Positions 21,101 through 53,169 of a DNA stretch of 64,000 bases are shown here, piece after piece. The position numbers and the translations under genes are program-made. The stretch's first letter is position 1, and every line of letters starts with the position of its first letter. The stretch is taken from the NCBI GenBank assembly GCA_000091205.1, contig AP006487.2, one strand, 5' to 3'. Origin of the DNA: Cyanidioschyzon merolae. Lineage: Eukaryota. The notes beneath the pieces were generated by a model. It did not search any database, was not told the origin of the DNA, and was given only the letters and a program-made list of their open reading frames with translations.

Positions 21101-24100
21101 GCAACGGCGACGACGACGACGACGTCGACCGCCCAACGCGCTGCCCTTATCGCGAGCACTCGTCGGAACAGTATCCGACCGCGTATGGACGTGGATTGTA
21201 ACGGTTTTGGACTTGTCCCGGTACTCGTTTCAACAGCTGGTGCGAGCGATGATCCGTTTCACCAAGCGCATGATCCGACGCAATATGGATCTCCATAGCG
21301 GCAGTGAGCTCGAGATCGTCGTTGAAATTCTCGGCATACAGGAGGAGCCATACATAGATCCTCTGGATGATTGGAAACTGACAAAAAGAGTCTGGTATCA
21401 GTTACCAGGTGGTCAGCGAGCGTACTTACCGAGCCTTCATGCATCCACAGCGGATGCCGAGGACGGATACCAGTATCATGAGGCGGAGCAGGTCCCCGGT
21501 GACGCCCAAGACGCGAGTACGCAGGGCCCGGATCCATCGGCGCTGGAGGATGCGCAGGTGCCGCGGCCTGCCTGCGAGTGACGCTGCCGAACAGGGTTCT
21601 ACAGCGCTCTTGATTGACAGGGTACTTGTACTGAGGCAGGACGAGCGCTGCTTGTCGTTGACACGAGCTTGGGCCGCACGCAAGACCACGGGCATGATGG
21701 TACAGCATGGGTAGTCGCGTGTCTAGTTTGGAAGATGCCTATTTTATGAATTCGACGAGGATGTGCATCGCGTCGTTCGACGCATACGGCGTGGCGTTCG
21801 AGCACCACGCATCCTCGGGGCGCGCATGTGTGCCTACCCGAGTCGACCGCTCAGCGCAGCGTACGCTTACCTGGCATCGAATCCGGAGTATTGGCCGGGG
21901 CGGCTTCGAGGAGTATGCGGAGGATCCTGCTTGCTGCCTGTTAGATGGATACACGCTCTTCCTTCTCAATGCGGAACTGCGGGAAAATTCAATGTTGCTG
22001 ATCCGAAACACCGACGATCTGGAGCGAATGCCTCGTCAAGGCATCTCCATCTTCTGGGCACAACGTGGGCCAGCATCGCGCCACCCGAAACCCCACATCA
22101 AGTTTCGGTTGCCTGCAGCCATACCGCTCGATGTGAATGTCGTCTAGCAGCGGATTCGGGGCCAGCGCAGGCCGCTGCTACGGCGTCCGGGCGTCTCTTT
22201 TCTGCAAGCTGTGTTACACTGCAAGTTGGCGACCCAGAAAGCCACTTTCGATTCATTTACAAAGGACGGTATGCGTGGTTTTGTATTGAACAAAAAGGTC
22301 CGAGTCCCGGTGACTTGACGCGAAACGAGGCGTATGTGTTCATGCAGATGCATCGTCCACACAGAGAGCGTCGCTCATGGATTTCGGAGACGCATCTGGC
22401 TACTGGGACAAAGCGCGATGTGGTATTGGGTGTGTGCTTCCACTGCCATGAGCTGATGCCTCGTAAGGGGCGTTCGAGCGGCGGTCTATTTTATTGGTGG
22501 ACGTCAACGAAGACGAGACTGATCCACGGGTCCGGTATCGCAAACGTCTCAAGCTGCTGACGCCCTCGAATCGCTCACTGACGCCACTGAGGTTTGTCTA
22601 TCGCTCCTGGAGCGCTCTTTTTAGAGATGCGCTGTAGCGAGGGTATGTCGATGGCGCTCAGGCAAAGGTCGTTTGCTGCTGCACGGGCGACGGGCATTGC
22701 GCTCTGCAGCAGCAACAGCAACAGCGACTTTCGCGGTCGCCGGTTGAGCAGACCTTGAGTTCGCTTGACGGGCGATCTTGGACAGTATCACTGGGTGCTG
22801 GGCAAACCTGCGTTTGTGCAACCATTCATATGCGTCAAGTGCATTGGACGAGCACCTATGAAAGATCTTGTCGCATGCAGGCATACCCCAGCGAGTCACT
22901 TTGAGCATACGTGATCATGTGCACTGCACTGGAATACCTGCGACGTACTCGGTTCCACACTTGTTCTTATCTGTCCAGGTGGAGCGTTCATCCGTTGGAA
23001 TCGCCGACTTGTTTCTGTAATGGTTCTGCTGGCAGTGTCGCGTTCGAGCGACAGGTTGGACGCTCCACCGAGACCCCTGAATGGCGGAGAGCTTGCTGTG
23101 GCGTATTCGTTGCGTCCTGCGTGCAGCAGGCACGATGGAGGCCAGCCCGATGCCTTCACGGTACTGAGCGTCTCGTTTCCATGTGTGGATTGTATCGCAG
23201 CTGCCCTGCACTCGAGTTTAGCGTGCCTAGTTGCCACGGCTTGCTTGCGTGCTCGCTCGCGCTGCTCCAGCGATAAACAACCGACAGACTGTTTACCCTG
23301 ACCCCAGAGCCTGCAATCGGTGATCAATATCGGCAGCCGTGGCATAGTATGAATCGTTCCGTGCCATATCTCCAAGTTCCGCTAGCGGTACTGCCCTTCG
23401 GGTATTCTGGTCATTTCGAATATTCCAGACCTGAAAGTTCCACTGGCCTGAGGCTATACCTGCCGTCGAAGATACTGGTTATTTCGTACCTTCTTTCGCC
23501 CTTCTGTGCATCGAGGTTGCCGTTAGCATCCGCACTAGCGCCGCTACATCGCTGCGGACACCGCACGGAGACGGAAAGGTTCGGCTATATCACTGATATG
23601 GTCGGCTCGAGCCGAGCTCGAGTTATATCGTGACGCGGGGATCCAGCAGTCGATGTATGCAGGCCTACCTTCGCGTGACGACGCGCTCAAGGAACTTGAT
23701 CGTTAGAACGAAACCTGGGCACCGGTTCTTGCTTGCGCTAACGCCACTTGAATGCTTCACTGTATCGCCACGCGGACTTTTGCACGGCACCCGTCCAGTG
23801 GGCAGCTGCATGAACCGCTGTACCCGTGTGCTCATCCATTTCCCGAGACCTTTTGCCAGGATGGCAGACACGCCGTCCCTGCATCGGGAAGCACGCCTCA
23901 TGTCCTCGGTGTGCGTCGACAGCACCTGTGTCCAGTACCCGAACATATCGCCTATTGCGCTAGCGAAGCAGCTCCATACTGCCTCTGCTTCGGCACTATC
24001 GGGCTATTCCGAATGCAAAGCTCAGTATCGGCGCATTATGGAACATACGATATGACCAGCGTCTTCAACGGGAAGTATGAGCATTGGAACGCGGAGAAAC

Positions 24101-26918: not shown

Positions 26919-28625
26919 TCAAATGCTGTGCAGTGATGACCCTGGCGTCGACTGCTCGAGTTGAACCTTCACGAGCTCCTCAAGAAGCACGGCTAGACAA
27001 ATCGTCACCATGGGTGAGGATGCAGGCGCATTCGCCCTTTGTAGTGCCGCTTTTGCCAGTTTTAAAAAGCATCCCGATGGAAGGCTTGGCGCAGAGGTCT
27101 GAATCGGATTCCACGCACTGATTTGCTCAGCGGGTAACGGTGCGTTCGGCAACGAACAGCCGTGTAAAGTGAGCACGTCTGACCCTGGCAGGCCGACTGC
27201 ACGGGACCATCGCGCAGCTCGTTGTATAAAGGCGGCGAGGCTGGTGCCCATGCGGACCTGTCGCTGAAACCCCAGCGGGGCCCCGTAAATCCAGGAGCCG
27301 CGAATGGACCCGTAGATACCGCAACAAGCCAGGATACAGTCTCCGTGCGACGGCAGCACGCCTAGCTTGACGAGTGTGCTTACCGATGCCCCATAGAGCG
27401 TGCGTTTGCGCGGCACCTGGGTTACAGGCCGGCACATCGGATTCGCCCGTATTGGCCTGGAGTGCAGCAGGGGCCACATGGACGCCGGCACACCCAGTCC
27501 GTCCAGCCTCAGTGCTGCGGCCACGAACGGCACTAGTTCGTCTCGGGGTACGGGCGTTCGGGCGCTTTGGTTGCAGCTGAACCAGCGAACGAGTCCATGA
27601 GCCAGAAACGCCTGCAGCGAAGGCCACGGGTATTGCGGTACTGGCGAGCATTCCGCAGCATCGCCGGCAGGCAGCGGGACGACGATGCCGCCCTCTCGAA
27701 CGATACCTACCACGTCCGGGGACGTTCCATGAGCCAAGTCGCCCGAGGCGGTTTCTGGTCCGAAGCAGATCCACGTCCCTGGTCCAAGGTAACCTAGTTC
27801 CCAGAGGTATGCTGGAAACCATTCCAGCTGACGCCATGCTTCGACGCTTTGATCGATTCGTGCCCCGCCTTGTGCGCTTAGCTGATACAGGTATTCGCGG
27901 TCGCTTGCCTTGGCGGCGTCCATACCCACACCGTAAAAGTAGAATGCACCAAGAAGCGTTACCAGTGATATACCGTAGGGATCCAAGGTTTCGAGTGGAG
28001 GCTCTGGTTCGCAGGTCGCGGAGTCTGGCGGTGCAGCGCTCGTCCATAACTGTGCTTCACAAAGCGCTCGCCATTCCGCTGCAGTACAGCGGGTACAGAA
28101 GAAAGTCTTCGACACAGCGGGTCCAGGAGATGCGCTTGTGTTAGCTGCTGTCGCTGTTACCCCCTCAACGACGCACGAGGCGTCATCCCGCAGCGTCGGA
28201 TAACGAGGCAGGTGTACGCGGAGACGATCACGTACCTGTCGCAGGGAGCGCGTTCCAACGTACGCTGCAACTCGCTGAACATCAACAAGGCCATCAGCTC
28301 TCCGAAACAACTCGCACGCCTCTGCCAAGCGAGTAAGTTCAACTGAACTCCAGTGTCGCCGCCGTTGTCGTCGTCGCGTGCTCCCCAAGTAGTTCGTGGT
28401 GGACGCGTCTCGCTCTGCCGGTGTCGGTGCTGGTGCGGAACGTTGCTCACGCAACCAACGAAGGTATACCTGTCGTTTGGTCCGCGTACCAACATGGGCA
28501 ACGACCTCTGCCCAGTTGATGCGCTCACTGGACTCTTGTTTCGCGAGCGCTTCTCGAAACCGAGCGAGTTCCGCAACGCTCCAGCGACTCGACGCTGCTC
28601 CGAAACGAGGCGCTGCGTCTGGCAT
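26919..28625 (-). CDS. Myb/SANT-domain protein (two N-terminal SANT-like repeats) with a large uncharacterised C-terminal domain
   Basis: The ATG at 28625 was verified. The SANT-like repeats are WSVAELARFREALAK...INWAEVVAHVGTRTKRQVYLRW and WSSVELTRLAEACELF...VQRVAAYVGTRSLRQVRDRL. I do not recognise the remaining ~400 aa. Confidence 0.5.
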   Translation of the reverse strand: MPDAAPRFGAASSRWSVAELARFREALAKQESSERINWAEVVAHVGTRTKRQVYLRWLREQRSAPAPTPAERDASTTNYLGSTRRRQRRRHWSSVELTRLAEACELFRRADGLVDVQRVAAYVGTRSLRQVRDRLRVHLPRYPTLRDDASCVVEGVTATAANTSASPGPAVSKTFFCTRCTAAEWRALCEAQLWTSAAPPDSATCEPEPPLETLDPYGISLVTLLGAFYFYGVGMDAAKASDREYLYQLSAQGGARIDQSVEAWRQLEWFPAYLWELGYLGPGTWICFGPETASGDLAHGTSPDVVGIVREGGIVVPLPAGDAAECSPVPQYPWPSLQAFLAHGLVRWFSCNQSARTPVPRDELVPFVAAALRLDGLGVPASMWPLLHSRPIRANPMCRPVTQVPRKRTLYGASVSTLVKLGVLPSHGDCILACCGIYGSIRGSWIYGAPLGFQRQVRMGTSLAAFIQRAARWSRAVGLPGSDVLTLHGCSLPNAPLPAEQISAWNPIQTSAPSLPSGCFLKLAKAALQRANAPASSPMVTICLAVLLEELVKVQLEQSTPGSSLHSI

Positions 28626-33384: not shown

Positions 33385-34431
33385 CTAAGCCCCGTGTTCG
33401 TCCATAGACACGTGTGCATCGATATGGAACAGCCAGCGCGTTTCCGTCGGCTGCATGCATGGCGATCGATGGATGGCGGCGGCGGCGGCACTGGCATCGC
33501 CATCTGCACGGATCCATCCAGTGCCTTTCAAAAGCACAGCATGCCACGGTACAAGTCGCTCAACAGGGGCGTCTGGGAGCGAATCCCGCAGCAACCAACG
33601 ACCAGATGACGGGTCCCAGATGTACTGGGGCACACTGATCGCCAGCGGCGTCGACACCTGCCGCCTAAAAACAACGTGCTGTGCGTGCTCCTCAGCTGTG
33701 CACGCCGACAGTGTCTGTGTTTGCCACCAGGACTTTCGGATGCGATAGGCACCGCCTACGCTTCGTGCTGCTTCGAAACGCTCCCGCCACACGAACGTCT
33801 CCCTTGCAATTTCCGTTCCAGGGCCTTGTAGCGTACAGAGCAGGCGCAGGGGCACAGAATCAACATGAAATCTCGGGCAAGGAGTGGAGTCCAAGAAACT
33901 CAAACGCAGGTCCACCGCACGTAGCGGGGATCTCGCATGTTGCCCAATTCGGTTCACGTTCTGTTCGAAGGCGAGGCAGAAGAGCTCGATCATTTCCAGA
34001 AGCGGTTCATAAAAAGTTTCCATGCCGTTCACCGAAAGCCCCATTTCCAGGAATAGGTGCCGCAACGCTGCTCGTTGCTGGTCGATGTCTGCAACCGGTA
34101 CGTGCTGTGCTGTTAGGACGCCGTTCGCTGGTCTGCGTCGAGTTCTCGCCGCCGCCGCCGCCGCCGTCCAGGCTTCTCGTAGGCGAGCGGCGTCAGAGCC
34201 CGGCTTCCACACGCACGCGAGACAGTTTGGTTGCTGAAGGCTTGAGGAAACCTGTGTTTTCACAGTCGTGTGTGCGATTCCGTGCAAAAGTGAGGGCAGC
34301 TCAGCTACCGACTCGTTACTAGTTGCAGCTGAGCAGTTGAACGGTGACCTATTTCTGGCCCGTTTGCGAACTATACCGTATGCTCGCCCGTGTCTTTGGT
34401 TCAAACAGCTCTGCGTTGCTAGAACAAACAT
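33385..34431 (-). CDS. Hypothetical protein with a DUF1826-like (bacterial-type) domain
   Basis: The ATG at 34431 was verified. The motif PCPRFHVDSVPLRLLCTLQGPGTE resembles the RFHxD...RLL.TY.GpGT core I recall for DUF1826. The assignment is from memory and needs an HMM search. Confidence 0.35.
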   Translation of the reverse strand: MFVLATQSCLNQRHGRAYGIVRKRARNRSPFNCSAATSNESVAELPSLLHGIAHTTVKTQVSSSLQQPNCLACVWKPGSDAARLREAWTAAAAAARTRRRPANGVLTAQHVPVADIDQQRAALRHLFLEMGLSVNGMETFYEPLLEMIELFCLAFEQNVNRIGQHARSPLRAVDLRLSFLDSTPCPRFHVDSVPLRLLCTLQGPGTEIARETFVWRERFEAARSVGGAYRIRKSWWQTQTLSACTAEEHAQHVVFRRQVSTPLAISVPQYIWDPSSGRWLLRDSLPDAPVERLVPWHAVLLKGTGWIRADGDASAAAAAIHRSPCMQPTETRWLFHIDAHVSMDEHGA

Positions 34432-36676
34432 AAGTCAACCTTTAACTTGCAACTGGAGTGGTTCCACAACACTGATTCAGCGCCGCTCGAGTTAACAGCT
34501 CGCGACAGTCGCTTGTCGTTGCGGCAACGTGCACTACGAACACGAGTGCTCGTCCTCACAGAGCGTCGTGAAATGGAATCGTTGCGATCCGCGCGGTACA
34601 GGCGTTGATCGCGCAGGATCGATGCGTCGAATCGAGCGGTACCTCCCGTGTCCGATACACATGGAATGCGGAACAGCTGGCTCTCTGTCGTGCGAATTCT
34701 CCCGGACTTCTTTTTTAGCTATAAAGCGTGGACACTCGGATTGCATTTATATTGGGTTACAGATTCATATTTGGTTTTGGGGCTCTTGGTCGGAGTGGGA
34801 GAGTGGTGTCTCTGCCGCCGGTGATCGTTGTGACACAGGAATCTGGATCATACGGGACACATCCTAACAAGGACTAGTGCAATAACCGATATCATTGGTC
34901 AAAGCACAGCTACATACTTACACTCATCTCTTTAAGAGCACGTGTAGTGTCATGGAATCAGGCATGCATCAATTCGCGATCTTTCTGTTTCAAGGAAACT
35001 CGTGAATCTCGCACACCGCGCCACTCGATGGAACAGGGAAACAGCTCGGGTTCGTCGCTTGACGACTTGTTCACGAGCTCATGCTGAAAGACCACTGAGA
35101 CCATCACATAACAAAACCGATTTCGTTCGAAAGCCGAATCCTGTTCTCTTTATTGCCATCGATGGCACTGCATTCGAGTGCAGCATGAAACCTGTAATGG
35201 GATATGCTCCCAGAGGTTCACGTCGCGCATCTGCCATGGAAAATGTTCTTGGATTCGGACTTGAGGCAGGGCAGGAATCCATTCCGGTGGAGAGTGTGTC
35301 ACTGCTTTGCATGAAGGGCGTGTATACGAATCGATATTTTCTCGACTAGTTCTGTAGCTTTGGCTCTCGTCTATATACCTGTTTCATCACGAACATCATC
35401 GCGTTCCACGAATCGTCATGTGCTCCCAAACCAGTAAAGAGCAGGGTGCTGATAGTCCTGCGCGCCCCAACATATTCCCCATGGTTGAACCCGAATCAGT
35501 ACGTGTTCGAGGCCGTGAAGAGCGACTTCACAGAGGCGAACACACATTTCGGTTACTCGGATCGTCCTCGACAAGAACTACTGCACGTCGCTTTTGGTGC
35601 TGCGACTGAGGCCGACGGCATTGGCAGCATTTGTCGACCGAGAATCGTTGAGGTTTGCGGATCTCGACTTGCCGAACATGCATAGAGAAAAGGGTGGCAT
35701 ATAGCATAAAGCATGCATACGTGCGGCTTGTTTATCACCGGGCGTACACAGCGAATGCAAACGAGCTGTGCCAGGGAAATTACAGAATAAGAGGAACAAC
35801 ATTATCTCCGAGCGTTCCGAAAAGAGGTGCGTGTCGCACTTGGAGAACGTCGCCCTACTCGGACGAAACGCCTGTTCGCACGACGCTAATCGATTGAGCA
35901 TCAGGTCGGAGACGAAGTATATTCTCGGACAACACGGAGTTTACGACGACCAGGGACGCTCACCGCTCCGCCGATTGCACGATGAATATCGGCATCGGAG
36001 AAGGCGGCCATCATTCCAGGTTCCGCCGATCACGTGCTGTATTTACCCGTCGGAGACACTGACCAATACGCATGTTCCGCTGTGCACCGAGCAATCGGTG
36101 AACGTCCTCCGTTGGGTCTCTAGCACCGGTTCGTAAGCACCACGAATATCGCACAGCTTCGTAACATACCTGGGCGTGGGCGCCATGTCAGGAGAACGAA
36201 AAACGCTTCAGGACTATCGAGTGCATCTATGCGCACACGCACACGCACCCACAGAGGCCTCCCCGGCTGTTTTTTGACCGACTGGCTGCTATCGTTCCAG
36301 TTTATCCAGGCACGCCTCAAGTATGAGAGGCTGCCCCATAAAAAATATCCCGTCAGCTGGTCGATTGTTGTTTTCAGCAGCGCACACCGTCTGATCTGGA
36401 TGGCGGCGTTGAACTCTCGGTTCGGGAACTCCTTGCATGCAGTGATGCTGGTGAAACTCATCAATGTAAGGATTCCTCGAACTCGTACACTCAGCGTCAT
36501 GAAAGTCTCGTCATCATCATCCTCTTCATCTTCTTCTTCATAGCACTTGCTCGTCTTCGCTCGATAATCGGAGAGAGGAGAATTTTCCGTTTTTCCCCGA
36601 CATCCGGCTGTGACTACGCTTCGAGTTCCCCGAATTCCATGTCCACACCTTTCCCCTGAATGTTTTATCTCTTCAA

Positions 36677-37855
36677 ATGAACGTACTTCAAACACATCTG
36701 CTACAAACCGTGAAAGCACATTTGATAACACGCTCACGTAAGTGGAACACTATTGAGGTAAACGAGGACGACACCGACTCCGGGTGGCGGCAACTTGATG
36801 CGTCGTGCAACCGGACGCACGCCCGGCATGGCGCCAAAACCTACAAACGCCACTGCCTATCTGGTGCGGCGCCTAGGCTTGTTGCCATGGTGGAGTCAGC
36901 GCCCCTGGGGCTGCTTGAGTCTACCGAGGAACTTGAAAACCGTCTGCTACAATCATATGTGTCCCTGATCAAAAATCTCACGCAGCAAAACGCTTCCTCC
37001 AATCCGGAGGACGCTCACGGCGGCAGTGAGAACCCCGCAGGGGCAGCTGCGGCACCAGGTGCGACAGCCGCCGCAGAAGCAGCGGTTGCCCGGCACGAAC
37101 ACCCTGGCGGCAACGAAACTGCAAAGGCAGATGCGCTAACAGATTCTGTCTTTTCGGACCTATGCTACGTACCAGAGGACTTTATGGTGCCGCCACACTG
37201 CATACCCGTGCGAGCTGACGTCCGGTTTGCTGACTGGGACCAGATCGCAGCAGCAGCAAACGGAAACTACGACGTTATTCTGATGGACCCTCCGTGGCAG
37301 CTCGCCACCGCAAACCCAACTAGAGGTGTGGCGCTCGGCTATAACCAACTGAGCGACGAGTCGATCCTGGCTATTCCCTTGGAAAAACTGCAGCGTTGCG
37401 GACTCCTCTTGATATGGGTAATCAACGCCAAGTACCGAGTGGCTTTACAGATGTTCGAACGCTGGGGCTATCGGCTCGTCGACGAAATCGTATGGGTGAA
37501 GCTGACGGTGAATCGGCGCTTGGCGAAAAATCACGGCTTTTATCTACAGCACGCGAAAGAGACGTGCCTGGTCGGTGTGAAAGGGAACGACCTTTCCGCA
37601 TTGAGCACTGCACCGGGCATGCCCCGACCAGATGTGATTCTCAGCGAACGTCGCGGACAGAGCCAGAAACCAGATGAGCTCTATGAATGGATCGAGGCGC
37701 TCGTGCCGAACGGCAAGTACATCGAGATATTCGCCCGGAAGAATAACCTGCGCAACTTTTGGGTCAGCATTGGGAATGAGGTCACTGGCGAGAGTTTCGA
37801 ACAGGCGCTACCGCCTGAACTTTGCAAGCAGCTGCGAGAAGAACTCTCGACGTAA
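36677..37855 (+). CDS. MT-A70 family N6-adenine methyltransferase (DPPW catalytic motif), 392 aa, no CCCH zinc-finger region
   Basis: The ATG at 36677 was verified. Matches: YDVILMDPPWQL, LLIWVINAKYRVALQMFERWGYRLVDEIVWVKLT, LQHAKETCLVGVKG and QSQKPDELYEWIEALVPNGKYIEIFARKNNLRNFWVSIGNEV. These align to the METTL3 methyltransferase domain (DPPW, WGYRRCEDICWIK, KEHCLMGIKG, EKP..IF..IE.F...RRLHLFGRD...GWLTVG). Confidence 0.75.
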   Translation: MNVLQTHLLQTVKAHLITRSRKWNTIEVNEDDTDSGWRQLDASCNRTHARHGAKTYKRHCLSGAAPRLVAMVESAPLGLLESTEELENRLLQSYVSLIKNLTQQNASSNPEDAHGGSENPAGAAAAPGATAAAEAAVARHEHPGGNETAKADALTDSVFSDLCYVPEDFMVPPHCIPVRADVRFADWDQIAAAANGNYDVILMDPPWQLATANPTRGVALGYNQLSDESILAIPLEKLQRCGLLLIWVINAKYRVALQMFERWGYRLVDEIVWVKLTVNRRLAKNHGFYLQHAKETCLVGVKGNDLSALSTAPGMPRPDVILSERRGQSQKPDELYEWIEALVPNGKYIEIFARKNNLRNFWVSIGNEVTGESFEQALPPELCKQLREELST

Positions 37856-38137: not shown

Positions 38138-38336
38138 GTACTGTACTGTACTGTGCTATACTGTACTGTACTGTACTGTGCTATACTGTACTGTACTGTA
38201 CTGTGCTATACTGTACTGTACTGTACTGTGCTATACTGTACTGTACTGTACTGTGCTATACTGTACTGTACTGTGCTATACTGTACTGTGCTATACTGTA
38301 CTGTGCTATACTGTACTGTACTGTACTGTACTGTAC
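38138..38336. repeat. Pentanucleotide microsatellite (TACTG)n interrupted by TGCTATACTG units, ~200 bp
   Basis: The run gtactgtactgtactgtgctatactgtactg... is visible. It lies in the convergent 3' intergenic region between the MT-A70 and ABCD genes. Confidence 0.85.
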
Positions 38337-38834: not shown

Positions 38835-41189
38835 CTATTCGAAGAGCGCGGGCTCTGTCCAGGTCATCGATTTCGCGCTTGTGCTCTCGATGTCAAGCAA
38901 TTCCCAGTCACATACGGGTTCAGGATCTGGCGAGGGATGATGGCGGTCATGTCGTGAGCGCGGGCGCAGGCGCAGCATTCTGGTGTGATACTGGAGCAAT
39001 GAGGGTCGGTGCCCCACCGAGACGACAGCTGCACCGAGTTGTCGGATTGCTGCGTACACCCGCGCCTCGGAGGCGATATCAAGCGCCGATGTGAACTCGT
39101 CACCAATCACTAAATCCGCACCATTAAGCAAGAGTCTGGCGACGCCCAAGCGTTGCTGCTCCCCCAACGAGAGAACCTCTGACCAGTTTCGCACGGCGCG
39201 AAGACCCTCGGGAAAGCGCTGCGCCAGTTCACTGAGACCCACGGCTTCGAGCACCTGCCAGAGGCGCTCTGCGAGCGGGCTCGTTCGGGAGTCACGTGCG
39301 AGTTCCGTTCCAGCGCTGGAACGTCCATTGAACGTAACCGTTTTCAGCGCGATAGAACGCAGCTCGTCTTGTTGCGCGACGGGCGGTGTCTGTGGATAAT
39401 ACAGGTTCTCGAGTAGTGAACCTAGCGTGCAGTACGGCTTCTGCGGCAGGAAGAAGGTCGATTCGCGGGCCGAGCGTCGCACTTGGCCTTGGCCTCGTCG
39501 CCAGAGACCGGCGATAGCGCGAAGCAGAGACGACTTGCCAACCCCCGATGGTCCCGTCACCAGGAGGCGCTCCCCGCGGCGAAGCTGAAACGACAGGTCG
39601 GCAAACAGGACCCGTTCGGTGAACAGCGACGTGCCCTCTTTGGCTGTATCGACGGCGCTGCGGTCGCGCGGTACACACAGGGTCAGTTTGTCGACCTGCA
39701 ACGGATACGGATCCGTCGCGCTCACAAAGTTCATCCGAATCCAGCGTTCAGCATTCTCTGGCTTATTCAAAGAGACGGCAGCGTCCAGCATTTCCGCAAA
39801 CTCACCGAGTCGATCGACACCGGCACTGAAAGCAGTCAGTGCCTCAAAGCGGGTTACAAATAGGGATAAGTCGCTCAAAATATGATTGAAAGCAGAGTAG
39901 GACTGGTTAATGACTCCAAGTTCGATCCTGCCGGCAAAATAAAGAGGTGCAACCACAAAACCCGGCAGGACCTGGATCAAATATCGGTAGCCTGTCGTGA
40001 AAAGCTCCAGATTTCTCTGCCAGACGATCAGTTTTGCCTGATTATCTACCGCTCGTTTGAGAAGCTCTTCACTCTCGTTGCGCTCTCGCTCCTCTCCACG
40101 ATAAAAGGCAATAGACTCGGCATTCTCCCGCACCCGAACGAGTGCATAACGAAAGTCAGCCTCGCGCTGAAGTTGCTGAAAGTTCAACTGCACAAGACGG
40201 CGCCCGATCGCAGCCGTTGCAAAAGTACCAAAGCCACTGTACACTATGAGCACTCCGAACAACTGCGGGTAAATGCTGAATAGTATGCTACTGAACGAAG
40301 CCAAATCCAGAATAGAGGTCAGCACTGTAAGGCCAAACGACAATGACGTGGCCGTAAAGGCATTCACATCTTCAGCGAGTCGCTGGTCCGGGTTATCGAC
40401 TTCAACCTGGGGCCTCTCCGGTGCTGCCGCGTGTCCATCCATTTCCTGGTTCTCCAGAAGCAGGCTCTGTTGGGCTTGAATCAGGTAATATGCACTGTTG
40501 GAAAAGTATCGTTCCAGGAGGAAGCGCGTCAGCCAGGCCCGCCAGCGCAGCGCCAGACGGTCGCGGGCGTAGCTGTACCACACAACGACCGGCACGCCGA
40601 CGAGCATCGCACCCAGGAAGAGCAGCATTTCTTGGGTGAACTGCTCGGGGTTACGATTGCTGAGCGCCGTCCAAAAATCACGACCAATAAAGGAAAACGC
40701 CACGGATACACCGGACTGGAGTAGCGTCAGCGCAAACACGGCCGCTAAGTCTGTTTTCGCCGTACGAGACTCGCGCCAGTATGGAGTAGCAAGCTTTCGA
40801 AACAGACCCCAGATTCGTCTCAGTTGTGTACGGCGCTTTGCTGCCGTGTCGTTCTCGCGTCCGTCGCCGTCATCCGCGCCTTGCGGCAAGCTCCTACCGC
40901 CGGCAGACTGCCCAGTGAGCTCCTCTTCAAAGGTGCCGAACCCAGAGAAAAGATTTCGCTGGAGAAAGCGTCTCAACTCTTGCTCAAGCGTACTCGAAGT
41001 TTGTCGCTCAGCGGGCCGTTCATCAGGCGGCGGTGGTTGAGCGTTACGTGCACCCGTGTCCCTGCAGAATACTCTCAGCGCTCGGGTGATGTTGCGTTTT
41101 GAAACTCGGTGGTTCATGGGTGCTCGGTGTCGGTACCCGTTCGACGCTACGCCCGGCACGAAAGCAAAGGGAACCTGTCGCCTATTCAT
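38835..41189 (-). CDS. ABC transporter subfamily D (peroxisomal/plastid-type) half transporter
   Basis: Walker A: [25 protein letters not shown] signature: [15 protein letters not shown]. Walker B: [13 protein letters not shown]. The ABCD-type TMD includes [34 protein letters not shown]. The track start is a GTG at 41213; the first ATG is at 41189, verified. Confidence 0.8.
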
Positions 41190-41673
41190 TACCGATATTT
41201 TCCAACAAACCACAACGCGTGACTCTTAAGTTCAGTCGGAGGCGCGCCCTGTGGGTTTCTCCAACGCCCTGCTCCGCCGGACACCGAGGAACGCGTCCGT
41301 CGCCTGCAAAGTCCACGCAGCGTTTCACCTGACTCGGGGTGTCGCTTTTGAGGCGACGCGGTTACGAGCGCTACGTGTTCCTGGAGTGCACTGCGTCCCA
41401 GTCCAGTTCAGGTTTAATACTGAACGTGCTTCGGTTTGCCGGCAAGGTTATTCGCGCGTCAACAGCAGTTTGCGCGGTTGTTGCTGGGTGAAGGCGCACG
41501 ACGATACGGCTCGTGCGCTTGGCTCGACATGCTTCGCGCCGGTGTCCGCTTCTGTGCAATGAGGGTACCTGCCCCCCATTCCCCCATTTGCCTCCCGCAA
41601 ACATCACCGCTCTCTCCAGGTCTCGTTGAGCGGGCGACAGCTTGTGTCGACACTGCCGGAGAACGCTCACGAA

Positions 41674-49154: not shown

Positions 49155-51398
49155 CTACGGGCACGCATGTTGAATCACGACATCCGAGTACCGACGCTGA
49201 ACGAGTTCAGCTTCGGATCTGCTCTGAACGAGTATCCAGATTGAGCGTATCTCCCGTGTATGGAGACAGAGGCGCCAGGGCGTGTGATTTGCATCCGCAT
49301 CAGATGCTTGTCGCGAATCACGGGGCCAGAGCACTGGTGTGCGTCCGATGACAACGCCACGAGCGGCATCGAGCACGGTTACCACTGCTGAGGTTCGGGC
49401 TGCGTGCAATCGTCCGCGACGATGGCGGATCAGGACTTCATCTCGCAGTTGCCAGCTGCTGCAGAGACAAAGTTCCCCCTTTGAGACATCGTCCCGCGGG
49501 ATGTCCACTCGATATGCGCACTGCGCGGGGAGCGATACGGAGCTGAAGTTGGAGCTGGAGCTGGAGCCGGAGCCGCTGTTTGGCCTATGTTCGAGCAGAT
49601 CGAGGTCGCTTCTGCGCGCTGCAGCGCGACTCGTGTGGCGTTCCTGGATCTTGGCGATCGAGCAATTCGCGCCTGCGTTCAGCGCGACGACTTCCCGGAG
49701 AAATCCCCCCGTGAGCAGTGCTCCGAGTTCAACGCAGTACTTGCAACTATTCATGCTCACGGGCAATCGCAGATAGACGCCGGCAGTGACCCCAGGGTAC
49801 ACCAGGTCCGACGGGTCTATCTCTGGGAGACGGCTTGTCTGCAGTATGCCGAAAGCTTCGCGCCAAACATAGACACCGCTCTGGTTAATGGAAATCGTCT
49901 GGTGAACGGGAGCAAGCATGATATCCGGATCCCCGGTCCCAATGATTGACGTCTCAACTGTGACGAGGACACTCGATCCACCTAGGAAGTAGTGTGGTGC
50001 CAGAAGCGAGCCCCATGGAGCGATCGAGAGTTTCGGTTTGTCCTTCTCGAGCGCGAGCACGTCGCGAAGCAGGTTCACGGACCCGAAGCCCCCGGGATCG
50101 CGCTCCAAAAACGCAATCACATTCCTGAGACCAGCGTCCGGCGTTCGTCCATGAGCGGGCCTGTATGTCGTGAACGCATCCACAAGGTCTCGCGCGAACA
50201 GAATCCCATCGACGGACTGGTCGGTTTTACGCACGTGCGACCACGTCTGGTTCAGCGAGTACATCGATATTCGTTTTGCTGACGAGATGCAAAGATTCAG
50301 ATGCGCGCCAACGTAAATGACCCGCTCAATGCCTCGTCCTTCGAGGACAGCAACGAGCTCCACGAGATCGTCGGCAACGAGAACATCATTCTCGGGATCC
50401 ACGTCCAGGAGCGGGTGCAGGGCCGACCAACCGTACTGCTCCTCGCATCGTTCTTGCGGGTCCGCCGAGCACATGCAGCCGGCAGGCCGGGGTAGGACGC
50501 GAGTGCGTCTCGCCGCCTCGTACGCCATGTCCACGATGCTGGTGGTAGCACGTAGGGCGTCCAGCTTAGCTCTTGTCGTGTAGCGTCGGGCGTTATCCCG
50601 CATGCGCCGCTCTCCGGCATTGCCTCGTTGCTCTAGAAATGCGACGATGTCTGTGGGGGCATGGATGACCAGCATGCCACGTTTCCGCGCCTCTCGGAGA
50701 GCAAGATTCAACGGTGGAATAAGCAACCGCTCTATTCTGGATGCTGCGGTCTTGCACCAGTGGGTGTCCCACAGGTCGACTACAATCAATGCCATCCGAT
50801 CGTAGCGCTCCTGTACATAATGCTCTCGTGCGATAATGTTCGGGTTCGAGGCCACACCCCAGCCATCGTCTGCGAACCATGTCGCGTCCATTGCGGTTGC
50901 CATTGGGTCGCTCGCTGGGCCCGGCATCCCAGAGGCCAGTCTTGCAGTATCCACGAACGACTGTCGCAGCGCACGGCGGCGAACAGGAAATGTGGCTATG
51001 CGCCTTGGATAGAGCAGCGGCGCCTGCTCGTCATCCAGCAGCGCTGTGTGATGAGACAAGTCTTGCGACCAGTACGCAGCGTGGACGGCTTTCATCAGCC
51101 CCGCGGTACCTGATCTCGAAGCATCAACTGCATCCGCAAAGTCGTAAACGAATTGGTTGTGAGAATGACCGTTTCGTGATTGGGCAAGCGCTAAAACAAA
51201 CGCTGATGGCGGTTGAAGCGATCCTCGGTACCAGAGCGCAAACCGACGATTCAGGGCGAGTGAGCGCGCGACCAACGCCAGTCCAAGAACAAAGCAAACG
51301 ACAGCACATAGGAAACAAGCAAGCACCCGGAACTTGTTACGCAGGCTCGTACTTCGGACTCTAAAGGGGTTCACTGGCCTCCGTGCTGGTTCTTGCAT
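49155..51398 (-). CDS. Signal-anchored (type II) membrane protein with an isochorismatase-like cysteine-hydrolase domain and an unrecognised C-terminal domain
   Basis: I infer the start at the ATG at 51398 (MQEPARRP...), followed by the TM segment FRVLACFLCAVVCFVLGLALV. Isochorismatase-like blocks: MALIVVDLWDTHWC and GIERVIYVGAHLNLCISSAKR...VDGILFARDLVDA. The track ORF extends to 51800 only because the frame stays open through the upstream 100-bp repeat. Confidence 0.5.
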   Translation of the reverse strand: MQEPARRPVNPFRVRSTSLRNKFRVLACFLCAVVCFVLGLALVARSLALNRRFALWYRGSLQPPSAFVLALAQSRNGHSHNQFVYDFADAVDASRSGTAGLMKAVHAAYWSQDLSHHTALLDDEQAPLLYPRRIATFPVRRRALRQSFVDTARLASGMPGPASDPMATAMDATWFADDGWGVASNPNIIAREHYVQERYDRMALIVVDLWDTHWCKTAASRIERLLIPPLNLALREARKRGMLVIHAPTDIVAFLEQRGNAGERRMRDNARRYTTRAKLDALRATTSIVDMAYEAARRTRVLPRPAGCMCSADPQERCEEQYGWSALHPLLDVDPENDVLVADDLVELVAVLEGRGIERVIYVGAHLNLCISSAKRISMYSLNQTWSHVRKTDQSVDGILFARDLVDAFTTYRPAHGRTPDAGLRNVIAFLERDPGGFGSVNLLRDVLALEKDKPKLSIAPWGSLLAPHYFLGGSSVLVTVETSIIGTGDPDIMLAPVHQTISINQSGVYVWREAFGILQTSRLPEIDPSDLVYPGVTAGVYLRLPVSMNSCKYCVELGALLTGGFLREVVALNAGANCSIAKIQERHTSRAAARRSDLDLLEHRPNSGSGSSSSSNFSSVSLPAQCAYRVDIPRDDVSKGELCLCSSWQLRDEVLIRHRRGRLHAARTSAVVTVLDAARGVVIGRTPVLWPRDSRQASDADANHTPWRLCLHTREIRSIWILVQSRSEAELVQRRYSDVVIQHACP

Positions 51399-51488
51399 AA
51401 GCCCAGAGGGCGTTTGCGCTTTTCGAAAGGCGAATCGAAGCCAAAATAGGCGGCGCGAGGATCGTGGCGGCGGCCGTTTCCTACCAGG

Positions 51489-51788
51489 TTCGAACCGCGC
51501 CCCTGTTTGTATACAAGGATATCGGAATACGAGGAAACGAGTACATGAAGCGAACCGGCGTGTACTTTCTGATGTTTGAGTCTCTTTCTTCGAACCGCGC
51601 CCCTGTTTGTATACAAGGATATCGAAATACGAGGAAACGAGTACATGAAGCGAACCGGGGTGTACTTTCTGATGTTTGAGTCTCTTTCTTCGAACCGCGC
51701 CCCTGTTTGTATACAAGGATATCGAAATACGAGGAAACGAGTACATGAAGCGAACCGGGGTGTACTTTCTGATGTTTGAGTCTCTTTC
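51489..51788. repeat. Tandem repeat, 100-bp unit x 3 copies, immediately 5' of the isochorismatase-like gene
   Basis: The unit ttcgaaccgcgcccctgtttgtatacaaggatatcg(g/a)aatacgaggaaacgagtacatgaagcgaaccgg(c/g)gtgtactttctgatgtttgagtctctttc starts at 51489, 51589 and 51689. Several track ORFs (51371..51646, 51464..51679, 51576..51779) are translations of this repeat. Confidence 0.85.
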
Positions 51789-53169
51789 CATTTTTATCAA
51801 CAGTAGCCTTTTCGGGATTTTTCTTTGAATGCTTGCTTTTCCGCTCCGTTGTTTTCGGATTTTGAAAGCACTCGCCGGGTGCGTCCGGTGAGCTACGTTT
51901 TCATCAGTCCAAGAGTGTTGATAGCAGCGATCATGAGACAGTTTTCGACGACTCCAGCTGCTTCAGCGTATTGCATACGCAGGTGGTGGTTGCGATGTAC
52001 GCTTCGTCTGCCATTTTCGTTTGCTCTCTTGACAGCGTCAGAGCGCTTTTCTCAGCGGTGATAATTGACTATGCACGGGTCTTCTCATATGCCCATAACG
52101 TATAGTTCTCTGGGCGCCATCTGGTGCCTCGTGATGGCTTGCTTCATCGTCTGGTATATGCCTCTGGTGGCTGCCGAAAGTCTCCCTGGATGCCCTCCAC
52201 CGTTTCTGCGCTCAGTGCCGGACACAACGATCACGGGGATCATCTGGGCAATGCCCCAGCGAGTGCACTGTCCACAGCACGGGCAAGTGCACAATCGTTC
52301 ATTCGATAGAGGATTTGCGGAACTCGATGTTTTCCATGGCGAAACAAGCACCAGACGGGAAATCCTGGCCAGAGAACAAGCCGATAGCAATCGATCAGAG
52401 AACGATCCGTACTTGCAAATCGGTGACGCATTTCGACTCGAAGCGACCGCTGCAATGGCTCGTGTCCGAGTTCGAGACCGTTTTCCATGAAAATAGAAGA
52501 GATGGAAGCGTCTGGGAGCATATCCCATGAGAGGTGCAATGCAGCTGTTGATTGCCGCTTCGTCAATCGCCTGGAAGACAGAAGAATTTATCTTTCGATC
52601 AGATTAGATTATGTAACGTGACGAGTTTAGTGAACGGCCAACAAAGGCCTCTGAACAAGTCATCGATGGATAACGTCGATGCTTTTTTCATAGTCCATTC
52701 AGGGGCGCGAGTTGCAGTCAGTGGGCGTCGCCTTGACATAGAAAGATCGAACACTTAAAGCATGTGCGAGTCGAGGACACTAAACGTAAGGAACGGGAAA
52801 GAGTGCAAGTTTATACGTATGCGCCGGACAATGATACCATTCAGTCTACGAACCCCTGTTCAAGGGTATCCTCAATCATTTTGATTCTGTTGACGTAAAC
52901 CAGGAGCAGAGCGTTGAATATCCTACTCTGTAAAGACGACCGAGCATCCCTAAGCTCGTTTACATCTGTTGACTTTTATTGCTCCGCTTCAGGTGTCGAA
53001 GCAGTACATCAAAAAAAAAATAGAGTTCGGAAGAAACATTGCAAGGCAGCAACCGAGCGCATCGTCCACTGCTGTCTTTAGATTTGACGCAGACGAGACC
53101 AGTCTTTGCGAGCTGGACGCTACGAGTGGACGTTCCGTTTCAGGGAGGTGTACAAGCGCTTTGAAAGCG

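Follow-up and report, generated by a model that had tools for sequence, protein, structure and literature searches.

A 64-kb stretch of Cyanidioschyzon merolae DNA, hereafter the window, carries on its plus strand a gene whose product is very probably the AMT1/MTA1 orthologue of this alga. In eukaryotes, AMT1/MTA1 is the catalytic subunit of the DNA N6-adenine methyltransferase. The product is 100% identical to the C. merolae 10D protein BAM79336.1 (XP_005535622.1, UniProt M1UPJ1), and we infer the locus to be CME116C on chromosome 5. Databases name it 'similar to (N6-adenosine)-methyltransferase', 'IME4' or 'mRNA m(6)A methyltransferase'. These mRNA m6A and IME4 names appear to be automatic; that public databases still label the protein an mRNA m6A methyltransferase is one reason why the finding has a modest but real practical value. 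The gene is an ordinary member of a known family and already figures as the AMT1 of C. merolae in a survey from 2025 (Nature Genetics, PMC12695648 supplement). With family, mechanism and distribution established and the gene itself surveyed, it represents no new kind of system. Its features are the following.

36677..37855, plus strand: open reading frame, 392 codons and a stop, ATG to stop; identical to the C. merolae 10D protein
36677..36886, plus strand: first 70 codons of the model as annotated, unconserved in comparison with relatives
36887..36889, plus strand: ATG of M71, the start codon kept among Cyanidioschyzon-like relatives
36926..37000, plus strand: predicted amphipathic helix, aa 84-108 (EELENRLLQSYVSLIKNL...), AlphaFold2 (AF2) pLDDT 61-78
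37007..37171, plus strand: Ala/Gly-rich low-complexity disordered linker, aa 111-165, 29% Ala, pLDDT <50
37178..37786, plus strand: MT-A70 methyltransferase domain of probable AMT1/MTA1 type, aa 168-370, from Pfam, phmmer, profile and Foldseek
37286..37297, plus strand: catalytic DPPW, D204-W207 (aa 204-207), corresponding to Tetrahymena D209-W212; roles from PMC12485025
37532..37534, plus strand: H286, corresponding to Tetrahymena H291 by our mapping; role from PMC12485025
37649..37672, plus strand: gate loop 2, RRGQSQKP, with S329 and K331 corresponding to Tetrahymena S332 and K334 by our mapping and PMC12485025
37787..37852, plus strand: short C-terminal tail, aa 371-392, without ZZ or further domain

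The reading frame proposed in an earlier note on this DNA is real: it is intact from ATG to stop and matches a known protein. An in-frame stop at 36611-36613, 5' of the frame, precludes any upstream extension. At the other end of the question, codons 1-70 of the annotated model are unconserved in relatives, so that the conserved start is M71, and these codons may be 5' leader instead of coding sequence. In the relatives L006 and L004 the gene starts at the Met equivalent to M71 or 24 codons before it, and L006 has no upstream in-frame ATG. Residues 1-81 are modelled by AF2 with a pLDDT mostly below 50. The 90% sequence cluster of the product includes 322-aa gene calls. A broken upstream ATG was considered as their cause and rejected, as near-identical strains have the upstream frame intact with one synonymous change; the 322-aa models are thus choices of the gene caller. 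We also considered an E2F-like site (GCGCCAAA) 49 bp 5' of the M71 ATG as an S-phase signal. It is missing in relatives, and such motifs occur in the window at chance level (12 observed versus 15.7 expected).

The product has a simple layout. The only Pfam match at E<0.1 is MT-A70 (PF05063, E=4.6e-36, aa 198-368). The motifs reported earlier were all located, with WVK at aa 273-275, KETCLVGVKG at aa 294-303 and QKPDELYEWIE at aa 330-340 in addition to DPPW. For most of the methyltransferase core the blockwise mean AF2 pLDDT is about 90, with dips to about 50 in loops near aa 211-220 and 281-290. The Ala-rich N-terminus, previously put at about 190 aa, is shorter, with about 167 aa preceding the domain, and it is Ala-rich solely in the linker at aa 111-165, where pN between relatives is 0.46-0.50. 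The absence of a CCCH zinc finger stands: besides the Pfam result, the pattern C-x7-9-C-x4-6-C-x3-H occurs in no frame of the 64-kb window. A zinc-finger exon missed upstream was considered as well; the in-frame stop and the lack of any finger-coding frame upstream argue against it, as does the missing CCCH pattern.

Sequence, profile, fold and tree concur in placing the protein with MTA1. In a phmmer search against the PDB the best match was Tetrahymena MTA1 (6e-72, 246 bits, aa 169-369), followed by METTL3 (4e-33, 118 bits) and, with lower scores, METTL14 (44 bits), Arabidopsis METTL4 (7cv6_B, 31 bits) and MTA9 (26 bits). A family profile gave 348 bits for MTA1 versus 163 for METTL3, and identity to MTA1 reaches 56% across 199 aligned residues. 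Similarly, the top 14 Foldseek matches in the PDB are all MTA1 chains (E 2e-24 to 4e-19), with METTL3 next (1e-18, 32% identity). The earlier assignment of the catalytic domain to the METTL3/IME4 clade was therefore wrong in detail, METTL3 ranking below all MTA1 entries, and METTL4, which it had also entertained, is excluded at 31 bits. Its preference for an MTA1-type DNA 6mA writer over a METTL3-type enzyme is borne out, the function being read from orthology only.

The phylogeny that the note had proposed alongside a PF05063 search puts the protein in the AMT1 clade. Neighbour-joining trees were built from 200 profile columns with references whose labels were checked, among them Tetrahymena MTA1 and Chlamydomonas XP_001695378. 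Bootstrap support was 99.4% for an AMT1 clade of 44 sequences that includes the protein, 97.8% for AMT2/5-ZZ, 80.8% for METTL3 and 93.6% for METTL14-like sequences; these values are not fully independent, as the core set was picked from a first tree of 116 sequences. In that full tree the deep AMT1 nodes are weakly supported because divergent, transposon-borne and fragmentary sequences are included, and support becomes high after pruning. An AMT2/5 assignment was rejected, since the protein has no ZZ domain and lies outside that clade. Taken together, the protein is, as judged from its sequence, an AMT1/MTA1 orthologue and not a METTL3-clade enzyme.

The active site points the same way. All 14 residues mapped from MTA1c-DNA structures, which in MTA1 touch SAM, the flipped dA or p1 (PMC12485025), are identical or conservatively replaced. 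Identical to Tetrahymena MTA1 are D204, P205, P206, W207, L209, V218, Y222, I249, H286, S329, K331 and E368; the conservative swaps are I225 to L220 and R358 to K355. The Tetrahymena residues that hold the flipped dA or wedge the duplex are P210, W212, L214, V223, I225, Y227, I254, H291, S332 and K334 (PMC12485025), and every one of these positions is identical here bar I225 (L220). DPPW opens gate loop 1, 'QLATANPTRGVALGY'. Tetrahymena H291 wedges into the DNA duplex beside the flipped adenine (PMC12485025), and the corresponding position, H286, is invariant across 40 AMT1 sequences.

By analogy with the ciliate enzyme, C. merolae AMT1 would take up SAM, and, at an ApT site, the H286 wedge would flip the deoxyadenosine out of the double helix. 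DPPW and the two gate loops would form the pocket that receives the flipped base for methylation at N6. Hemimethylated sites would be preferred, so that 6mA could be copied following replication, and in active genes the mark would be placed on the linker DNA that closely follows the transcription start site (TSS). Double-stranded DNA as substrate, ApT specificity, maintenance and the occurrence of 6mA in C. merolae are all inferred in this way; the literature searched contained no 6mA measurement for any red alga, C. merolae included. In Trichomonas, AMT1 paralogues that lack partners show a different sequence context, and ApT/SATS specificity is therefore not to be assumed.

Upstream of the domain, the predicted helix at aa 84-108 is kept within Cyanidiophyceae in the alignment (pN 0.25-0.29) and resembles, by eye, the Tetrahymena sequence 'LLQDIEKRILHYKQLF'. 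It may be the counterpart of the N-terminal helix with which MTA1 docks p1/p2. An HMM built from other AMT1 N-termini in a leave-out test scored it at 5.0 bits, inside the range of shuffled controls; homology is statistically unsupported and the resemblance is positional and structural only. Both p1 (AMTP1) and p2 (AMTP2) are homeobox-like DNA-binding subunits. As a possible p1-like subunit we considered the SANT/Myb protein encoded at 26919-28625 on the minus strand, 8 kb upstream. It was rejected: no p1 or p2 chain was matched, and phmmer against the PDB returned generic SANT/Myb matches only, at E>0.1.

What AMT1 pairs with in C. merolae is the question on which explanations diverge. The earlier note had seen no METTL14-like (EPPL) partner, and indeed a family HMM run against the six-frame translation of the 64-kb window finds no second MT-A70 gene of any kind. 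A catalytically dead MT-A70 partner (AMT6/7, that is, MTA9) is likewise missing from the window, and the published genome screen, which used HMMER and BLASTP, gives zero. For C. merolae the survey lists one AMT1, no AMT6/7, one AMT2/5 and no METTL3, METTL14 or METTL4, with Cmer_CME116C and Cmer_CMH026C as the taxa in its tree (PMC12695648). With AMT6/7 reported absent, AMT1 must dimerise with itself, with a ZZ-finger paralogue or with an undetected divergent partner. Other species bearing AMT1 also lack AMT6/7, so the dead partner is a hallmark of the ciliate complex, not of the AMT1 clade.

That AMT1 works as a homodimer, like bacterial CcrM and EcoP15I Mod, with or without p1/p2-like DNA-binding helpers, is a real if tentative possibility. 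Bacterial relatives of the fold act as homodimers (PMC12485025), and three very compact algal genomes, those of C. merolae, Ostreococcus and Micromonas, are listed without AMT6/7 (PMC12695648), the two green ones showing normal-looking 6mA. Against this, Tetrahymena MTA1 is inactive alone and needs MTA9/AMT7, p1 and p2, and the published screen could have missed an AMT6/7 that has diverged strongly.

A second explanation pairs AMT1 with the other MT-A70 protein of the genome. This protein (P0295) was found via a metagenome scan followed by an exact look-up; a keyword protein search returned 17 AMT2/5 proteins, none from C. merolae. P0295 has intact DPPW and FAR motifs, an MT-A70 and three ZZ domains, and 35% identity to the AMT1 of the window. 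Its DPPW and ZZ fingers make it AMT2/5-type, and it presumably corresponds to locus CMH026C. In a minimal complex of this kind, one DPPW-DPPW heterodimer of AMT1 and the ZZ-finger paralogue would carry out both de novo and maintenance methylation. The survey counts (PMC12695648) fit such a pairing, as do the status of P0295 as the one remaining MT-A70 protein in the genome and its intact DPPW. Furthermore, the MT-A70 writers of known stoichiometry, METTL3-METTL14 and AMT1-AMT6/7, are heterodimers (METTL4 is described as a single protein), and AMT2/5 is frequently found alongside AMT1 in the survey. However, the pairing proposed for Tetrahymena joins AMT2 to AMT5 and neither of them to AMT1, and Micromonas and Ostreococcus, with AMT1 and without AMT6/7 and AMT2/5, have 6mA nonetheless, which means that AMT1 apparently manages without either. 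We consider the heterodimer unlikely. We are equally doubtful of the wider picture in which C. merolae would have a stripped-down 6mA system of two catalytically competent MT-A70 proteins and no dead AMT6/7 subunit, a single heterodimer both establishing and maintaining the mark. If true, such a two-protein 6mA system would be the first described in red algae.

Whatever the partner, C. merolae, with AMT1 and AMT2/5 and no AMT6/7, provides a clean setting in which to ask how little machinery eukaryotic 6mA requires. Its genome measures 16 Mb, homologous recombination is routine, genes are easily targeted and the cell cycle can be synchronised.

Two further readings concern the activity itself and fare far worse. 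A METTL3/IME4-like enzyme that writes m6A on mRNA, doing so without zinc fingers, would agree with the database names, with the fold and DPPW common to METTL3, and with the listing of C. merolae without METTL3 and METTL14 (PMC12695648), which leaves mRNA m6A, if there is any, to be written by a different enzyme. This is highly improbable: the METTL3 score is half that of MTA1, the protein groups with AMT1 at 99% bootstrap, CCCH fingers are absent from the protein and upstream of it, METTL14 is absent from the window and, in the survey, from the genome (PMC12695648), and the DNA-wedge histidine and gate-loop residues of MTA1 are conserved.

Just as improbable is a decaying or repurposed relic without methyltransferase activity, for which the missing canonical AMT6/7 partner and the loss of every MT-A70 gene from Gracilariopsis, Chondrus and Pyropia, the other red algae in the sample, could be cited: the frame is intact, all mapped catalytic residues are retained, and orthologues are kept in Cyanidioschyzon-like relatives and Galdieria. 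The methyltransferase domain is under strong purifying selection, with pN of 0.05-0.10 versus pS of 0.62-0.82 between relatives, synonymous sites being near saturation. The gene is vertically kept, which also speaks for the AMT1/MTA1 reading, and the gene order DUF1826, MT-A70, ABC transporter, ATP11 and kinase is preserved in the Cyanidioschyzon-like relatives.

The AMT1/MTA1 orthologue thus preferred here compares most directly with the catalytic subunit of the Tetrahymena thermophila MTA1c (PDB 7yi8, 7f4l, 8xyl, 9u9e). The two proteins share DPPW, the gate loops and the histidine wedge, an MT-A70 domain that is 56% identical, the lack of zinc fingers, a similar size (372 aa versus 392 or 322 aa here) and a mostly disordered N-terminal region with one helix. 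In Tetrahymena this helix lies about 10 residues before the domain, whereas in C. merolae an Ala-rich linker of about 55 aa stands between, and Tetrahymena has the AMT6/7 (MTA9) partner that C. merolae reportedly lacks.

More distant members of the family differ in architecture. Human METTL3 has the MT-A70 fold, DPPW and the SAM pocket in common with the C. merolae protein at only 32% identity, and it carries CCCH fingers, depends on METTL14 and acts on RNA, whereas the C. merolae protein has neither CCCH fingers nor a METTL14. The AMT2/5 clade also consists of DPPW MT-A70 proteins connected with DNA 6mA, in Tetrahymena with its de novo deposition, and is co-resident in the C. merolae genome. 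It forms a separate clade with C-terminal ZZ fingers (PF00569), whereas the protein of the window ends 22 residues past its domain.

Among algae, the Chlamydomonas reinhardtii orthologue (XP_001695378, P0086) belongs to the same clade with 65% domain identity, and ApT 6mA is well documented in that species. The survey (PMC12695648) lists an AMT6/7 partner for Volvox, a relative of that alga, and for most of the other chlorophytes sampled, unlike C. merolae. Micromonas pusilla and Ostreococcus tauri resemble C. merolae more closely in this respect, as they combine tiny genomes with a kept AMT1 and no AMT6/7, although they also lack the AMT2/5 that C. merolae retains (PMC12695648). Measurements in both show 6mA in the linkers that follow the TSS, and they provide the best precedent for 6mA deposition by an AMT1 without AMT6/7.

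The window is nuclear DNA from strain 10D of the red alga C. merolae. The 392-aa MT-A70 protein encoded by the ORF 36677-37855 (+) is an orthologue of AMT1 (MTA1), the catalytic subunit of the ciliate DNA 6mA methyltransferase, with intact active site and DNA-contact residues and under purifying selection. It is 100% identical to BAM79336.1 / XP_005535622.1 / UniProt M1UPJ1 (record of 528,682 bp). The third letter of C. merolae locus tags gives the chromosome and, taking this together with the records of the two family members, we infer that the gene is CME116C on chromosome 5. A published survey names the MT-A70 members of this alga CME116C and CMH026C (PMC12695648). The ORF and motifs on which the earlier note relied are real:

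Motifs of the window protein
aa 204-207, DPPW
aa 273-275, WVK
aa 294-303, KETCLVGVKG
aa 330-340, QKPDELYEWIE

MT-A70 (PF05063, E=4.6e-36) is the sole Pfam family, no CCCH pattern occurs in any frame of the whole window, and an in-frame stop lies directly 5' of the annotated ATG, all in agreement with the zinc-finger absence described before. Likewise, a family HMM search of the window revealed no second MT-A70 gene, and hence no METTL14-like partner there.

Comparison of the protein and its family profile with solved proteins separates MTA1 clearly from the other clades.

Bit scores, single-sequence and family profile
Tetrahymena MTA1, 246 (E 6e-72) and 348
Human METTL3, 118 and 163
METTL14, 44 and 65
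Arabidopsis METTL4, 31 and 29
Paramecium MTA9, 26 and 43

The MTase core of the AlphaFold2 model is predicted with confidence (blockwise mean pLDDT near 90 across most of its length), and the best 14 Foldseek PDB matches of the model are MTA1 chains only, with METTL3 next at 32% identity. Searching 1.84 billion cluster representatives brought up 8,738 relatives at E≤1e-3, of which 175 reached E≤1e-30; the same search provided the tree references, namely ZZ-finger AMT2/5 proteins (Pfam PF00569), METTL3 and two single-chain METTL3-METTL14 fusions, whose labels were checked. In a neighbour-joining tree of a core set of sequences (200 profile columns) the protein groups with Tetrahymena MTA1 and Chlamydomonas XP_001695378, inside the AMT1 clade and outside that of METTL3.

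Bootstrap support of clades
AMT1 (44 sequences), 99.4%
AMT2/5, 97.8%
METTL3, 80.8%
METTL14-like, 93.6%
Cyanidiophyceae, 96%

The 99% for AMT1 is not fully independent because the core set was chosen from a larger first tree, and deep AMT1 nodes are poorly resolved in the larger tree including divergent and fragmentary sequences; neither the bit-score gap nor the fold ranking depends on this choice. Together, scores, fold and tree bear out the main point of the earlier guess of an MTA1-type DNA 6mA writer, the function on DNA itself being probable by orthology.

In DNA-bound MTA1c, D209 forms a bond to N6 of the flipped deoxyadenosine, whose pocket is lined by P210, W212, L214, V223, I225, Y227, I254, S332 and K334; H291 acts as a wedge in the duplex, and R358 and E371 contact the accessory subunit p1 (PMC12485025). 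Mapped through the single-sequence search alignment, the equivalents D204, P205, W207, L209, V218, L220, Y222, I249, H286, S329, K331, K355 and E368 are identical bar two conservative changes (I225 to L220, R358 to K355) and mostly invariant among 40 AMT1 sequences. Between C. merolae and two Cyanidioschyzon-like relatives, pN of the MTase domain is 0.05-0.10 against near-saturated synonymous sites (pS 0.62-0.82), with dN/dS of ~0.04 in the sole pair allowing an estimate. Judged by this divergence the gene is strongly constrained, and that it is a relic is extremely unlikely. Following Tetrahymena structures and genetics, AMT1 would bind SAM, flip the adenine of ApT sites out of duplex DNA and favour hemimethylated sites, thereby maintaining symmetric 6mA in the linker DNA that immediately follows the TSS of active genes; taken jointly, we consider these steps quite probable.

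The N-terminus had been described as about 190 Ala-rich residues. An Ala-rich part exists (residues 111-165, a disordered linker with 29% Ala and pN 0.46-0.50), but the region consists of three distinct parts and is not uniformly Ala-rich. Residues 1-70 are not conserved and mostly have pLDDT <50; the relative L006 has no in-frame ATG 5' of the Met equivalent to M71, the relative L004 extends only 24 codons before it, and several 322-aa gene calls occur in the 90% cluster. The conserved start is, on this comparison, M71 (nt 36887), and since the upstream ORF is intact in near-identical environmental strains, translation from M1 may still occur in 10D. Inside this doubtful extension, 49 bp 5' of the M71 ATG, an E2F-like consensus lies on the minus strand (36831-36838, GCGCCAAA); with a motif count at chance in the window (12 versus 15.7 expected) and its absence from two relatives, it probably has no significance. 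A helix is predicted for residues 84-108 (pLDDT 61-78) and is kept within Cyanidiophyceae (pN 0.25-0.29). The N-terminal region of Tetrahymena MTA1 is similarly disordered for the most part and contains a single helix, which joins the p1 HTH and p2 in the 'N-terminal extension module' (PMC12485025). Both helices are similar by eye (EELENRLLQSYVSL in the window protein, QDIEKRILHYKQLF in Tetrahymena MTA1); as the C. merolae region scores no better than shuffled sequence against a leave-out HMM of other AMT1 N-termini, we take this as resemblance only.

Both flanking genes are housekeeping genes unrelated to the methyltransferase:

33385-34431 (-), DUF1826 protein, upstream neighbour
38835-41213 (-), ABC half-transporter with ABC_membrane_2 domain, downstream, convergent neighbour

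The wider order (peptide deformylase, SANT/Myb, GT2, DUF1826, MT-A70, ABC, ATP11, kinase) is kept in relatives, which argues for vertical inheritance. The SANT/Myb gene, 26919-28625 (-), is syntenic in L004; its 567-aa product has a single N-terminal SANT/Myb domain (aa 13-57) and no other recognisable domain, and it does not detectably match p1 or p2 of MTA1c. Two ORFs, 49155-51800 (-, 881 aa) and 21763-22560 (+, 265 aa), match no Pfam family at E≤0.001. The spacer 34432-36676, between DUF1826 and methyltransferase, measures 2.2 kb in 10D versus only 155 bp in L004 and includes a short ORF (35446-35685, 'YSPWLNPNQYVFEAVKS'). This ORF weakly matches the DDE_3 transposase family (E=0.0047, short of the Pfam cut-off), which suggests a decayed Tc1/mariner-like insertion. 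The convergent 3' spacer that separates the methyltransferase and ABC transporter genes carries a tandem array of GTACT-like units (38138-38336; TRF period 15 or 25, 8-13 copies, 86-91% matches), the source of 'TVLYC' pseudo-ORFs.

The representative search also uncovered Ty3/gypsy-type retrotransposon polyproteins, P0257, P0247 and P0242 (full length) and P0188, P0244 and P0249 (fragments), all six ending in an AMT1-like MT-A70 domain with DPPW. All three full-length ones carry RVT_1 and RNase H before this domain, and two of them also an integrase core and a chromodomain. A May 2026 preprint reports Dam-type methyltransferases in retrotransposons; its passages on MT-A70 or AMT1 call MT-A70 enzymes structurally unrelated to these and describe no MT-A70-carrying elements. 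P0235 (941 aa) and P0271 (758 aa) each join a METTL3-like to a METTL14-like domain in one polypeptide, with CCCH-like cysteines upstream of the former; the halves of P0235 match METTL3 (232 bits) and METTL14 (154 bits) in the PDB, and P0271 is assigned by the tree only.

Family, structures and wide distribution are established and a 2025 supplement (PMC12695648) already includes the gene as AMT1, so that its identity is known and ordinary. This survey, which used HMMER with PF05063 and BLASTP with Tetrahymena AMT6/7, lists one AMT1, one AMT2/5 and no AMT6/7, METTL4, METTL3 or METTL14 for C. merolae, and no MT-A70 at all in three other red algae (PMC12695648). Scanning metagenomes with an AMT2/5 profile, and then an exact look-up, led to the second protein, P0295 (presumably CMH026C; BAM79731.1, 626 aa, record of 739,753 bp), with MT-A70 and three ZZ fingers, intact DPPW and FAR motifs and 35% identity to C. 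merolae AMT1. The public names of BAM79336.1 / M1UPJ1 and BAM79731.1 / M1UQD8, '(N6-adenosine)-methyltransferase' or 'IME4', and for the window protein also 'mRNA m(6)A methyltransferase', are misleading because both fall in the DNA-linked AMT1 and AMT2/5 clades; that the window protein writes mRNA marks is highly improbable. The literature searched contained no report of 6mA in any red alga, C. merolae included. A 2026 Cyanidiophyceae paper gives Dnmt3 as the sole predicted DNA-methylation enzyme, and its PacBio reads could serve as a source for 6mA kinetics (PMC13353863).

With intact DPPW in both C. merolae proteins, both look catalytically competent and neither resembles the dead AMT6/7 subunit. 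An undetected divergent partner of AMT1 receives most of the weight left by two other arrangements: action as a homodimer, a possibility we hold tentatively, and a heterodimer with CMH026C, which is unlikely. Absence of AMT6/7 is compatible with a working AMT1 pathway, as Micromonas and Ostreococcus, with AMT1 only in the survey (PMC12695648), still have linker 6mA downstream of the TSS. Trichomonas has AMT1 paralogues and no partners, with a shifted sequence preference.
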